Of a stretch of DNA of 17,898 nucleotides, positions 12,514 through 16,603 are shown one piece after another. The number at the start of each line of letters is the position of its first letter. Position 1 is the first letter of the stretch. The notes below the pieces were generated by a model. That model ran no database searches and had not been told where the DNA came from. It saw nothing but the letters and a program-made list of their open reading frames with translations. The DNA lies in IMG/VR virus record IMGVR_UViG_3300035498_000693, positions 1 through 17,898 of that record. One strand, 5' to 3'. The position numbers and the translations under genes were made by a program. Source of the stretch: a virus.

Positions 12514-12539
12514 GGTGGGAGAAATCTCACCTTTTGATT
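12514..12539 (+). terminator. Terminator hairpin with GAAA tetraloop, fused to the next promoter's -35
   Basis: GGTGGGA-GAAA-TCTCACC, a 7-bp stem including one G·U with a GNRA loop, flanked by AAA upstream and TTTTGATTTTTT downstream. Confidence 0.55.
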
Positions 12540-12562
12540 TTTTATAAAAAATATTATATAAT
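12534..12562 (+). promoter_or_regulatory. Sigma-A-type promoter, TTGATT-17-TATAAT
   Basis: TTGATT at 12534-12539, 17-bp spacer, TATAAT at 12557-12562. The track's TTG 'start codon' at 12534 is actually this -35 element. Confidence 0.65.
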
Positions 12563-12597
12563 ATATATAGAAAATAAAAGAAAGGAAATGATATTTA

Positions 12598-13007
12598 TGA
12601 GAGATAAAATGTATAAAAAATATCAGCATAAATTAAATAAGAAAATAAAAGAAGCAAATAAAAATCTTGAAAAAGATGCTGTTTTTCTTGGGAGATTTAT
12701 AATTAGACAAAAAGAAGCTAGATGGGAAAGGTTTGAAGATGGTTCAGGCGGAGTCCTTCATACCATTCTTCGTGTAGCTGACAAAAAAACAGAATACTAC
12801 AAAGATTATCTTTTTGACTTTTCAGATTCAGATTTTATGGATTGGGAACTTTATATGGTTATCCTTAATGGATTTATTATTAATGATTTGAATTTATGGA
12901 ATAATGAGAAACCAAGAGAAGCAAAAGAGGATTGGACAAAAATTTCAATTAATGAAGAAATTTTTAAAAAAGGATATAATTTTTTCCAAAGATATAGGAG
13001 AGACTAA
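12598..13007 (+). CDS. Hypothetical protein (about 136 aa)
   Basis: ATG at 12598 downstream of AAAGGAAA. The longer track ORF from 12534 would start inside the promoter. No motifs recognised. Confidence 0.45.
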
Positions 13008-13008
13008 T

Positions 13009-13402
13009 ATGTTATTAAAAGATAAATTTAAAATGGGAGATATAGTTAAACTTAGAAATGGTGAAATCTGTATTGTATTTCCTGATAGTACCATTGAAGG
13101 AATTGGTCTTTATAGATTTCAAAAAAAATAGTTTTAGATTTGCTAAGCATGTTGATGAATATGATGAAACTTTAAATTCTAAAAAAGAATCTAAATTTGA
13201 TATAGTTGCTTTTTATAAAAGTCCAACTTCATATCAGACAGTTTTGAGAGATACTATAAATTATTTAATTCAAGGAAGAATAGATGAAATAAGTATCCCT
13301 TGGGATTGGAAAAGAGAAAAGCCTATAAAAGAAATGACAATAGAAGAAATTGAAAAGACATTAGGATATAAAATAAAAATTGTGAATAAAAAGGAGGACT
13401 AA
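13009..13402 (+). CDS. Hypothetical protein split by a +1 frameshift at an A8 homopolymer (two ORF pieces, 13009..13131 and 13121..13402)
   Basis: ATG at 13009 with RBS AGGAGAG. Frame 1 reads MLLKDKFKMGDIVKLRNGEICIVFPDSTIEGIGLYRFQKK and then stops. Frame 2 continues KKNSFRFAKHVDEYDETLNSKKE...IVNKKED to a stop at 13402. The two frames overlap exactly at AAAAAAAA (13121-13128). The frame-2 piece has no RBS of its own. Confidence 0.5.
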
Positions 13403-13405
13403 TCT

Positions 13406-14639: not shown

Positions 14640-14662
14640 TTTATAAAAAAATATATTATAAT
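14634..14662 (+). promoter_or_regulatory. Sigma-A-type promoter, TTGATT-17-TATAAT
   Basis: TTGATT at 14634-14639, 17-bp spacer, TATAAT at 14657-14662. Confidence 0.65.
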
Positions 14663-14699
14663 ATATTTATAAGATAAAAAAGAAAGGTTGTGTTAATTA

Positions 14700-15083
14700 A
14701 TGAGTATGAACAAAAATAAAACAATGACAATTAGTGATTTCTATTGTATAGAATGTAGCTCAAGAGGAATACCAATAATGCGGATGGCAGGAAAGGAAAG
14801 AGAAGCTGGACATCTAAAAAAACTATATTGTGTTAAATGTCAGAAAGAAACAAATCATGTAGAAATTAGACCTTTTGGTAAATATACTTATCAAGACTTT
14901 CTTTTAGAATTTAAAACAGGAAGATTTGTTAATGGACAGAGAGTTCCTATAAGTGAATTAAAAGGTTGTAAAAATTTAGAGTGTAATTACAATATGTATG
15001 GAAAATGTTGGAACGCAAAAGAAGATTATAATTGTTTAGAAAGAGCAAGACATAAGAAAGGAAATATATATTTATATGAGTAA
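14700..15083 (+). CDS. Cys-rich zinc-ribbon-like protein (127 aa)
   Basis: CIEC...(about 28 aa)...CVKC, plus additional Cys/His (CKNLECNYNMYGKCWN...C). The stop overlaps the next start (ATGAGTAA). Confidence 0.5.
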   Translation: MSMNKNKTMTISDFYCIECSSRGIPIMRMAGKEREAGHLKKLYCVKCQKETNHVEIRPFGKYTYQDFLLEFKTGRFVNGQRVPISELKGCKNLECNYNMYGKCWNAKEDYNCLERARHKKGNIYLYE

Positions 15084-15582
15084 ATTAATTATTATGGCGG
15101 GTATCCCCGGTTCAGGAAAATCAACCTACGCCAAAGAACATAAAGGGGAAAATGATATTTATATATCAAGAGATGAAGTACGCTTTTCTTTATTAGAAGA
15201 AAATGATGATTATTTTTCAAAAGAAACACAGGTATATAATAAATTTATAGAAACTATTAATAGAGCTTTACAAATTGGAAAATTTGATGCTATTTGGGTT
15301 GATGCAACTCATATTAATAAAAAATCAAGAACAAAATTATTAAGAAGAATTAATCAGCCATATTCAAGTTTAGAGGCAGTTTGGTTAAAAACTCCTTTAC
15401 AGACATGTTTGAATAGAAATAATCAGAGAACTGGAATTACAAAAGTTCCAGACCCCCAGATAAGAAGAATGAATGATGGTATGGAAGAACCATTATTTAT
15501 AGAAGGCTTTGATAAAATAACAATAGTTGAATTAGATAAAGAAAATACTTATACAAAAGAAGATAAAGGGGTATTATTTTAA
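15076..15582 (+). CDS. Polynucleotide 5'-kinase (T4 Pnk kinase-domain-like P-loop)
   Basis: N-terminal 'MSKLIIMAGIPGSGKSTYAKEH' (GxPGSGKST, as in T4 Pnk 'GCPGSGKST'). Downstream 'ISRDEVR' and 'NRNNQRTG...VPDPQIRRM' resemble the Pnk Arg-rich acceptor-binding motifs. Translationally coupled to the upstream gene. Confidence 0.7.
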   Translation: MSKLIIMAGIPGSGKSTYAKEHKGENDIYISRDEVRFSLLEENDDYFSKETQVYNKFIETINRALQIGKFDAIWVDATHINKKSRTKLLRRINQPYSSLEAVWLKTPLQTCLNRNNQRTGITKVPDPQIRRMNDGMEEPLFIEGFDKITIVELDKENTYTKEDKGVLF

Positions 15583-15596
15583 AGGAGGTTGAATTT

Positions 15597-16181
15597 ATGG
15601 AAAATAAAGTTTGGCTCACTAGCGATTGGCACTTTCTCCATGATAAGGAATTTATCTGGGGTGCCCGCGGTTTTAAATCAATAGATGAAATGAATGAAGA
15701 AATAATTAAAAGACATAATGAAGTAGTTGGTTCAGATGATATAGTTTATTGTCTTGGTGATGTATGCTTAGGCGGGGGCGGCGCAGAAGTCCTTGAAAAA
15801 GCAAAACAGTTTATTGAAAGATTAAATGGAAAATTATATATCCTTAGAGGAAATCATGATACTGATGCAAGAGTAAAAATGCTTAATACGTGTAAGAATG
15901 TAGTAAATTGCGGAGATTATGCGACTTTAATAAAATGTGGCAAATATCATTTTTATCTCTCACATTATCCTACTTTGACTGCAAATTTAGATGAAGGAAA
16001 ATCTCTATCTCAAATTATGATAAATTTATATGGTCATACGCATCAAAATACTAATTTTTATAGAGATATGCCTATAAACTACCATGTAGGAGTAGATAGT
16101 CATAATTGTTATCCTATTGAAATAAATCAGATAATTGAGGATATAAAAAATAAAATTAAAGAATGTGAGGAACAATTATAA
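15597..16181 (+). CDS. Calcineurin-like binuclear metallophosphoesterase (194 aa); candidate 2',3'-cyclic/3'-phosphate healing enzyme
   Basis: RBS AAGGAGG. Metallophosphoesterase motifs I-V: 'SDWHF' (DxH), 'CLGDV' (GD), 'RGNHD' (GNHD), 'SHYP' (H), 'YGHTHQ' (GHxH). It immediately follows the kinase, giving the bacterial Pnkp kinase-then-metallophosphoesterase order as two ORFs. Confidence 0.7.
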   Translation: MENKVWLTSDWHFLHDKEFIWGARGFKSIDEMNEEIIKRHNEVVGSDDIVYCLGDVCLGGGGAEVLEKAKQFIERLNGKLYILRGNHDTDARVKMLNTCKNVVNCGDYATLIKCGKYHFYLSHYPTLTANLDEGKSLSQIMINLYGHTHQNTNFYRDMPINYHVGVDSHNCYPIEINQIIEDIKNKIKECEEQL

Positions 16182-16603
16182 TGAAATATACTTTAACATA
16201 TTCTAATTTTGATGAAGAAACAAAAGTTTCTACTACTACAATAAGTACAGTATTAGGACATTTTACAGCAACCGCAAAATTTAATCCTGAAGATAAGTAT
16301 ATATCTTCATACTTAGGCTGTTGGGTGGCAGAAGTAAAAGCATATAAAAAAGCTCTAAAAATGCAACGAAAGAATTTAATATTACAGCAAAAAACATTAG
16401 AAAGTTTTCAGAAAAAGCTATCCCAAAAAGAAAAAGACAGTTATGCAGTTCAGCTTGTTGAGAAAGAAATTTTAAATATATTTGTTGATATTATTAATAT
16501 AGAAAAAGATATAAAAGATTTAGATGAAATTGTTGAAAGACGTCTTACTGCAAGAGAAAATAGTTTAGACATGTTAGAAAAGAAAAAACAAGGTCATAAA
16601 TAA
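16181..16603 (+). CDS. Hypothetical protein with a C-terminal coiled coil (140 aa)
   Basis: ATG overlaps the upstream stop (TAATG); RBS GTGAGGAA. No motifs recognised. Confidence 0.45.
   Translation: MKYTLTYSNFDEETKVSTTTISTVLGHFTATAKFNPEDKYISSYLGCWVAEVKAYKKALKMQRKNLILQQKTLESFQKKLSQKEKDSYAVQLVEKEILNIFVDIINIEKDIKDLDEIVERRLTARENSLDMLEKKKQGHK

Follow-up and report, generated by a model that had tools for sequence, protein, structure and literature searches.

Candidate RNA-repair genes around an Rnl5-type ligase in an AT-rich phage DNA

This work concerns a DNA stretch of 17,898 nucleotides (nt) from a virus, positions 1 to 17,898 of the IMG/VR record IMGVR_UViG_3300035498_000693, referred to below as the window. 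A preliminary description made from its letters had proposed that an ATP-dependent RNA ligase, a Pnk-type polynucleotide 5′-kinase and a metallophosphoesterase, encoded close together in its right part, form a complete toolkit for the repair of RNA ends. Profile matches in Pfam and PHROG, and not motifs alone, bore out the three enzymes at their positions. The candidate set is larger than had been described, since it also includes a lambda-phosphatase-type metallophosphoesterase at 3708–4424 and a Thg1-like protein encoded at 7887–8759.

Ligase, kinase and phosphoesterase genes

The features that carry the proposal are the following.

12534–12562, plus strand: promoter of the ligase unit, sigma-70-type, TTGATT-N17-TATAAT, directly 3′ of a hairpin at ~12510–12533
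13406–14599, plus strand: putative ATP-dependent RNA ligase of Rnl5 architecture, 397 amino acids (aa), with an N-terminal OB domain and a nucleotidyltransferase domain and no C-terminal appendage
14607–14637, plus strand: intrinsic terminator hairpin at the end of the ligase unit, its T-tract overlapping the next −35 box
14634–14662, plus strand: promoter of the kinase unit, TTGATT-N17-TATAAT, the motif found at 12534 and 7162
14700–15083, plus strand: zinc-ribbon protein, CxxC...CxxC (phrog_1257, 5.5e-13), overlapping the kinase start by 8 nt
15076–15582, plus strand: stand-alone Pnk-type polynucleotide 5′-kinase, 168 aa, kinase domain only, no fused phosphatase
15597–16181, plus strand: binuclear metallophosphoesterase, 194 aa, phrog_547 family, AQ665/YfcE-like fold, starting 15 nt past the last base of the kinase gene
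3708–4424, plus strand: second metallophosphoesterase, lambda-phosphatase/NinI clade (1g5b, 3e-09; phrog_246, 3.3e-39)

The ligase matched the Pfam families PHA02142 OB (3.6e-23, residues 10–91) and RNA_ligase (8.2e-20), as well as phrog_968, labelled 'RNA ligase' (4.6e-63). Its best solved structure was the RNA ligase of Naegleria gruberi, NgrRnl (5cot, 5.3e-28), and the match spans both the N-terminal domain (residues 6–95 to NgrRnl 3–101) and the nucleotidyltransferase domain (186–396). As every profile and structure match is an RNA ligase, the reading of this gene as a DNA ligase was discarded. The KIDG sequence that the preliminary description had taken for motif I holds that role (K216-I-D-G, residues 216–219, aligned with K170-L-D-G of NgrRnl), but the EGLVFR stretch assigned there to motif V (372–377) is motif IV, and motif V is F385-K386. 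In a set of 30 homologues with 26–72% identity, conservation of at least 95% was observed for K216, D218 and G219 (motif I), S240-R241-N242 (Ia), Q290-G291-E292 (III), E372-G373-x-V375-x-R377 (IV) and F385-K386 (V).

The Rnl5 clade is defined by an N-terminal domain, the lack of a C-terminal appendage and the sealing of duplex nicks with an RNA 3′-OH strand (PMC4408790). Both architectural traits are present in the window ligase, whose C-terminus lies 11 residues past K386, co-linear with that of NgrRnl, with no appendage after motif V. The T4 Rnl1 family profile RNA_lig_T4_1 (PF09511) did not match it, and an Rnl1, Rnl2 or Rnl4 identity was rejected in favour of the Rnl5 architecture. In NCBIfam, the only match was the DraRnl model TIGR02306 (equivalog of DR_B0094), with 97.3 bits and an E-value of 7.7e-28. 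Because this score is below the 151-bit cut-off, the protein appears to be a divergent ligase of Rnl5 architecture and not a DraRnl equivalog; it is predicted to be of the duplex nick-sealing type, as are Rnl5 enzymes. It is ~57 residues longer than NgrRnl and carries between its domains a Lys/Arg-rich basic insert (~96–185) with a hydrophobic IMFFFF stretch that is absent from NgrRnl. Within this insert at least the peptide DWGKKIMF recurs in relatives, the peptide itself being among the patterns used to fetch them.

The kinase matched AAA_33 (1.8e-19) and phrog_505, 'polynucleotide kinase' (4.1e-23), and its best structures were the kinase domain of Clostridium thermocellum Pnkp (4gp7, 1e-09), T4 Pnk (1ly1, 7.8e-07), PSTK and Pnkp1 (4xrp). 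Its local matches in NCBIfam were PSTK and bacterial Pnkp, the latter model (TIGR04075) aligning with the kinase region only (49 bits against a 750-bit cut-off). Across 82 sequences, G9, G14, K15, S31, R32, D33, R36, D76, R85, N115 and R118 reach a conservation of at least 95%, and G9-x4-G14-K15-S16, D33, R36, D76, N115 and R118 align with catalytic residues of the CthPnkp kinase. The protein thus shows the features of the polynucleotide 5′-kinase clade, namely a P-loop GxxxxGK(S/T), a general-base Asp with an Arg, and lid arginines; the Asp and Arg correspond to D35 and R38 of T4 Pnk, which we take to be its general base and nearby arginine. A HAD (DxDxT) domain, as in the bifunctional T4-type Pnkp, was found in none of the scanned open reading frames (ORFs) of the window. 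Homologues of the kinase are present in 193 cultured-phage records, where they are annotated as polynucleotide kinase and adjoin RNA or tRNA ligase genes, or carry the annotation 'RNA ligase'; examples are Bacillus phage Chewbecca gp136–137 and Staphylococcus phage Twort, and the T4-like PseT was also matched.

Upstream of the kinase, the zinc-ribbon protein that had been noted earlier was confirmed as a CxxC...CxxC ORF in which C16, C19, H38, C44 and C47 are invariant, while a C-terminal extension with four cysteines is optional. Its PHROG family carries the label 'ribosome associated inhibitor A; zinc finger domain'. In an AF2 model, the best Foldseek matches of the N-terminal ribbon were bL33 chains (target-normalised TM 0.7–0.78, E ~0.03). 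The Pfam family Ribosomal_L33 matched 3 of 36 family members, with E-values of 0.05 or worse and beside many generic zinc-ribbon families. Homology to bL33 is therefore retained as a lead only, which the sequence profiles do not confirm.

The phosphoesterase at 15597–16181 matched Metallophos (7.8e-09; 36.7 bits against a 21.5-bit cut-off), Metallophos_2 (~8e-09) and phrog_547, 'phosphoesterase' (2.2e-43). All the calcineurin-like binuclear motifs (DxH, GD, GNH(D/E), H and GHxH) are present, in agreement with the preliminary description, and the residues D10-x-H12, G54-D55, G85-N86-H87, H123 and G146-H147-x-H149 do not vary among 32 homologues. AlphaFold models the protein with confidence (pLDDT 91). 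In Foldseek, the order of matches was AQ665 of Aquifex (1xm7, uncharacterised, TM ~0.7), YfcE, the Ap4A hydrolase SapH, LpxH and Vps29, with lambda phosphatase at rank 24, and the best sequence match in the Protein Data Bank (PDB) was GpdQ (3e-04). On these grounds, membership in the lambda-phosphatase/Pnkp clade was rejected. Since the nearest folds are AQ665 and YfcE and the best sequence match is GpdQ, homology does not specify the substrate, and we regard the protein as a candidate enzyme for healing 2′,3′-cyclic-phosphate or 3′-phosphate ends, with the 3′-healing role suggested by its context. The family is common in large lytic phages (Herelleviridae; Pseudomonas, Escherichia and Vibrio phages), and the homologue of Listeria phage P100, gp151, has RtcB, an RNA ligase and an HD hydrolase within a few kb.

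By its sequence relatives, the protein encoded at 3708–4424 does belong to the lambda-phosphatase/Pnkp-phosphatase clade, unlike that at 15597–16181. In phrog_8238 (737 aa, labelled 'RNA ligase') the phosphatase part is matched by this protein and the N-terminal part by the kinase. A 2',3'-cyclic phosphodiesterase activity is described for lambda phosphatase and for the Pnkp phosphatase (PMC2190708). The enzyme encoded at 3708–4424 is arguably the better candidate for healing 2′,3′-cyclic phosphates.

Two adjacent transcription units, beginning at 12534 and 14634, had been proposed for these genes. The two units stand, separated by the terminator at 14607–14637 and the promoter at 14634, but the two positions are those of −35 boxes and not of gene starts. 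The units of the window are as follows.

2884–7119, plus strand: transcription unit with a look-alike promoter
7227–9953, plus strand: transcription unit with the Thg1-like gene and the look-alike promoter at 7162
10030–12486, plus strand: transcription unit of the major-vault-protein-like (MVP-like) gene, with a look-alike promoter
12597–14599, plus strand: transcription unit ending with the ligase gene, promoter at 12534
14700–16603, plus strand: transcription unit of the zinc ribbon, the kinase, the phosphoesterase and p140, promoter at 14634

An extended motif, TTGATTTTT(T)ATAAAAA...TATAAT, is common to the Thg1, ligase and kinase units (at 7162, 12534 and 14634), and similar promoters lie at 2817–2845 and 9965–9993. 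Because the extended motif occurs three times in the window against zero expected from shuffles, several units probably share one temporal class. The motif is part of a repeated terminator-promoter cassette (7124–7190, ~12510–12562 and 14607–14662) in which the T-tract of the hairpin runs into it. Within the 14700–16603 unit, the zinc-ribbon and kinase genes overlap by 8 nt, the kinase and phosphoesterase genes are separated by 14 nt, and the phosphoesterase and p140 genes overlap by 1 nt; this spacing suggests that the genes of the unit are translationally coupled.

Neighbouring genes and related loci

Other genes of the window that bear on the proposal, or that share units with its genes, are listed here.

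5596–7119, plus strand: flotillin-like SPFH/Band-7 protein, 507 aa (NF058507, 6.4e-68, below cut-off)
7887–8759, plus strand: Thg1-like 3′-5′ polymerase of the tRNA 5′-end repair type, 290 aa (PF04446, 9e-32; phrog_4717, 1.7e-91; 4kgk, 2.7e-63)
10030–12486, plus strand: MVP-like protein, 818 aa, with a shoulder/SPFH domain (MVP_shoulder, 1.1e-19; rat and human MVP structures, 1.5e-07)
12597–13007, plus strand: p136, protein of unknown function, first gene of the ligase unit, with no Pfam, PHROG or PDB match
13009–13131 and 13058–13402, plus strand: two overlapping small ORFs in different frames, with an A8 run at 13121–13128
16181–16603, plus strand: p140, protein without database match, its start overlapping the phosphoesterase stop by 1 nt

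The Thg1-like protein retains the RIDG and SDE motifs, which we take to be its metal-binding carboxylates, and in this feature its sequence is consistent with membership among the Thg1-like proteins (TLPs). It carries an insertion of ~39 residues (123–161) relative to the TLP structure of Bacillus thuringiensis, 4kgk. The flotillin-like gene is found here in a separate unit, together with the lambda-type phosphoesterase, and the MVP-like gene has the Thg1 unit on one side and the ligase unit on the other; homologues of the latter gene were detected in 17 of 80 phosphoesterase-centred loci. SPFH/Band-7 modules were reportedly put forward as scaffolds for repair in a 2016 survey of RNA-repair systems by Burroughs and Aravind. 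An SPFH gene within the rtc RNA-repair locus of Pseudomonas aeruginosa is on record (PMC13086221). Phage MVP homologues are so far known from one preprint, with no mention of RNA-repair neighbours (10.1101/2023.11.10.566534).

The window is AT-rich phage DNA (G+C ~25–39% in 1-kb windows). Its left end holds three leftward ORFs, two of them with weak matches to virion or tail-type proteins; all the other genes are rightward, and the last ones encode a holin and an amidase endolysin. A megablast search with the whole window as query found nothing similar among 50,697 phage records, so none of them comes from a near-identical cultured phage. Deletion of one A in the A8 run at 13121–13128 would join the two small ORFs into a single ORF of 130 aa, whose product has no homologue among 127 related loci; the run may represent a homopolymer sequencing error or a +1 frameshift site, or there may be two real genes. 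Weak conservation of p140 downstream of the phosphoesterase was seen in a few relatives.

For comparison, 40 ligase-centred and 160 phosphoesterase-centred loci were fetched, the latter by means of aligned phosphoesterase homologues. Some lie on viral contigs and others on contigs binned into gut or rumen Bacillota genomes; many of these contigs are 100–330 kb long. A locus search with the single sequence of the kinase gave no match. Linkage was counted in 108 non-identical loci with both the kinase and the phosphoesterase, all assigned to uncultivated phages of gut or rumen Bacillota, with fetched flanks of 6–10 kb per side. The two genes are adjacent in 92 of these loci, and a zinc ribbon lies just upstream of the kinase in 65. 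A lambda-type phosphoesterase is found at most 1.5 kb upstream of the kinase in 42/108 loci, and an SPFH gene at most 1.5 kb downstream of the phosphoesterase in 50/108. The flanks include a ligase in 37 loci (immediately upstream, as in the window, in 22), while in 13 a Thg1-like gene lies upstream of the kinase at a distance of at most 3 kb; a ligase or a Thg1-like gene is present within the flanks of 53 of the 108. The usual order in relatives is lambda-type phosphoesterase, zinc ribbon, kinase, phosphoesterase and SPFH, which the window splits over two units. Homologues of p136 adjoin the ligase or the lambda-type phosphoesterase in related loci.

Five of the related loci deserve description. 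In L070, a single ORF of 369 aa (9455–10564) joins the kinase to an AQ665-like phosphoesterase in the domain order of Pnkp, and it is preceded by a lambda-type phosphoesterase (8525–9298) and a short zinc-ribbon ORF (9301–9558). In L104 (8430–9197, 255 aa) and L108, which are without a separate zinc-ribbon gene, the kinase bears an N-terminal zinc-ribbon-like CxxC...CxxC extension unrelated in sequence to the zinc ribbon of the window. The closest relative, a contig fetched twice (L041/L048), has a phosphoesterase 76% identical to that of the window. Its slot after the p136 homologue (L041, 5083–6788) holds a very divergent protein of 432 aa, Rnl5-like, with OB and RNA_ligase matches (Pfam, 2.3e-05 and 7.6e-05). 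As the only significant BLASTP segment between this protein and the window ligase is a stretch of 64 residues of the OB domain (31% identity), it appears from its sequence to be a non-orthologous replacement in the ligase slot. Finally, the distant 127-kb phage contig L034 has an RNA-repair island (6338–12732) that encodes an Rnl1-type ligase (6338–7498, matching PF09511), a GIY-YIG protein, a Thg1-like protein, an Rnl5-type ligase and an RlaP nucleotidyltransferase.

A proposed heal-and-seal pathway and its alternatives

We propose, with moderate confidence, that the RNA ligase, the polynucleotide kinase and the phosphoesterase constitute a phage toolkit for healing and sealing broken structured RNA, distributed over co-regulated transcription units. 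The data establish which domains are present, that their catalytic residues are conserved, how the genes are grouped in operons and that their linkage recurs, once as a fusion. From these we infer the substrates, the order of the steps, which of the phosphoesterases acts on the 3′ end and a purpose in counter-defence. In this scheme, host or toxin RNases would cut tRNA or another structured RNA. The stand-alone kinase (15076–15582) would add a phosphate to the 5′-OH, and one or both phosphoesterases (15597–16181, AQ665-like; 3708–4424, lambda-type) would take off the 2′,3′-cyclic or 3′-phosphate. The Rnl5-type ligase (13406–14599) would then close the 3′-OH/5′-phosphate nick, with the pieces held by base pairing. 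The Thg1-like enzyme (7887–8759) would rebuild 5′-truncated tRNA ends, and the zinc-ribbon protein probably adds RNA or partner binding. A tRNA with a single nick in the anticodon stem can be resealed by a nick-sealing ligase, T4 Rnl2, and the Toprim nuclease OLD leaves 5′-phosphate/3′-OH ends that need no healing (PMC12445682).

Several observations weigh against this proposal. Characterised Rnl5 enzymes depend on a nick in a duplex, no sealing of anticodon-loop breaks by them is known (PMC4408790), and physiologically the family has been linked only to the repair of DNA in irradiated cells (PMC5397189). No tRNA genes (ARAGORN) or RNA families (Rfam, E up to 1) were found in the window, where the defence-system profiles of PADLOC gave only a marginal VakA match, for the kinase; nothing among these results points to a specific target. 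Regarding 3′ healing, the phosphoesterase at 15597–16181 is without a characterised close relative (GpdQ, 3e-04; AQ665 as top fold), and its family, phrog_547, is represented in 1331 cultured-phage records, the kinase in 193. Its distant homologues (at most 45% identity, in Lachnospiraceae-type contigs) have no adjacent kinase. About two thirds of the kinase-phosphoesterase loci have no ligase in their flanks, and most related loci belong to one phage lineage, so that some of the linkage may reflect synteny by descent. The enzymatic roles given here to all the proteins are predictions from sequence and gene context.

The first alternative, which we consider unlikely, is that only the kinase and the ligase repair RNA, while 15597–16181 degrades second messengers, Ap4A-like dinucleotides or other phosphodiesters, with the 3′ ends healed by the lambda-type enzyme or by no phage enzyme. 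The closest folds of known function (YfcE, SapH and LpxH) are phosphodiesterases and pyrophosphatases with small-molecule substrates, the family has a much wider distribution than the kinase, and 3708–4424, in a clade with demonstrated RNA 2′,3′-cyclic phosphodiesterase activity, could take over the healing. Moreover, calcineurin-like phage phosphodiesterases have been predicted to counter nucleotide signals (PMC7824862). Against such a separate role stand the natural fusion of kinase and phosphoesterase in L070, the 14-nt gap between their genes in the window and their adjacency in 92/108 loci even though neighbouring genes rearrange.

In a second alternative, the substrate of the whole set would be DNA or an RNA-DNA junction. 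The kinase and the phosphoesterase would clean DNA ends with 5′-OH and 3′-phosphate, and the ligase would seal nicks with 3′ ribonucleotides, such as primer remnants or ribo-patches, in the course of phage replication or repair. T4 Pnk acts on DNA too, and in related loci genes for gyrase and RNase H are found at a distance of a few kb. Whether the 5′-phosphate strand or the template is DNA or RNA makes no difference to Rnl5; loss of DraRnl renders Deinococcus sensitive to ionising radiation and delays the reassembly of its genome, and the authors left open whether DNA, RNA or both are the targets of Rnl5 and Rnl2 (PMC5397189). We nevertheless judge this reading decidedly unlikely. A Thg1-like enzyme, of a kind characterised on tRNA 5′ ends, repeatedly accompanies the module; the L034 ligase sits with the RNA-repair genes for Rnl1 and RlaP; and the nearest relatives of the kinase are kinases of RNA-repair Pnkp and the tRNA kinase PSTK.

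Very improbable, in our view, is an assembly of unrelated accessory genes with no common pathway, kept together by the inherited order of one phage lineage: nearly all loci come from gut or rumen metagenomes with phosphoesterases 45–76% identical, and the flanks repeatedly include unrelated genes, the endolysin gene among them, but the module holds while its surroundings vary (some loci have the ligase ~7 kb downstream, others have it ~0.4 kb upstream), the SPFH and lambda-type genes have moved to another unit in the window, the closest relative has a non-orthologous Rnl5-like ligase in the same slot, and both the L070 fusion protein and similar combinations in unrelated cultured phages exist.

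Returning to the heal-and-seal proposal, the Thg1-like partner, the L070 fusion, the replacement of the ligase and the recurrence in unrelated phages weigh against these alternatives, although none of them is decisive. A bolder version, to which we give little credence, would join the repair enzymes into one machine: the Thg1-like enzyme would fill gaps in tRNA stems in the 3′-5′ direction and the Rnl5 ligase would seal them, the SPFH and MVP-like proteins would provide a cage or scaffold, and the bL33-like zinc ribbon would dock the enzymes on ribosomes or tRNA, giving a phage-encoded, vault-like repair compartment. If true, such an organised machine would be the first defined physiological pathway for Rnl5 ligases.

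RNA repair by phages is a classic counter to tRNA-cleaving immunity, and work on PrrC, RloC, Cas13, PARIS, PtuAB and OLD makes this a very active field. The physiological role of Rnl5 was still called uncharted in 2017 (PMC5397189), and the present locus, with more than 100 relatives, sets an Rnl5-type ligase in a context of end healing and tRNA repair, which gives a concrete and testable hypothesis. The loci also make the uncharacterised and very widespread phrog_547 family, with more than 1300 cultured-phage records, a candidate for the healing of RNA ends, and they show that phage SPFH and MVP homologues travel with RNA-repair genes.

Comparison with known repair systems

The preliminary description had likened the locus to T4 Pnkp and Rnl1, which counter the anticodon nuclease PrrC. 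The likeness holds for the logic of the genes, that is, phage-encoded 5′ phosphorylation, 3′ dephosphorylation and ATP-dependent sealing, and the kinase is homologous to T4 Pnk (1ly1, 7.8e-07). However, the T4 kinase is fused to a HAD (DxDxT) phosphatase, whereas here the kinase is a protein of its own, with binuclear metallophosphoesterases as candidate phosphatases. Likewise, T4 Rnl1 is a specialist for tRNA loops with a C-terminal domain, whereas the ligase has the Rnl5 architecture.

The locus had also been viewed as a bacterial Pnkp split into separate ORFs. It resembles the Pnkp-Hen1 and Pnkp1-Rnl-Hen1 systems (Clostridium thermocellum, Capnocytophaga) in its CthPnkp-like kinase (4gp7, 1e-09; also 4xrp) and in the order of kinase and then metallophosphoesterase, fused in L070. 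Bacterial Pnkp unites in one polypeptide a kinase, a lambda-type phosphoesterase and Rnl4, whereas here three genes in two units encode a kinase, an AQ665/YfcE-like phosphoesterase and a ligase of the Rnl5 type, and no methyltransferase domain of a Hen1 partner was found in the scanned ORFs of the 17.9-kb window. Because of the clade of the phosphoesterase, the family of the ligase and the absence of Hen1 from the window, the idea of a split Pnkp ancestry was abandoned.

With DraRnl and NgrRnl the ligase shares an N-terminal OB-type domain, a nucleotidyltransferase domain ending right after motif V, and all the motifs; it differs from them in its end-healing gene context, none having been described for either enzyme. 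The Thg1-like protein is similar to the bacterial TLP of B. thuringiensis (4kgk, 2.7e-63), but it is phage-encoded and linked to end-healing and ligase genes.

Close parallels are found in jumbo and other large phages (Iyer et al. 2021, PMC7824862; P100; Chewbecca), which have modular sets of ATP-dependent RNA ligases, kinase, phosphoesterases, Thg1 and nucleotidyltransferases. The jumbo-phage survey describes the same syntax of ligase, kinase and phosphoesterase, with occasional calcineurin-like phosphatases and sporadic Thg1 (PMC7824862). Phage surveys report mainly Rnl1, Rnl2 and RtcB ligases with HAD phosphatases, and calcineurin-like ones in 'a small number'. In the literature, we did not find a description of the combination of a zinc ribbon, a stand-alone kinase, two metallophosphoesterases and an Rnl5 ligase beside SPFH and MVP-like genes. 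Phage RNA-repair gene sets are well described from T4 to the jumbo phages, and the concept is not new; the value of this combination lies in new enzymology and new targets and not in a new principle.

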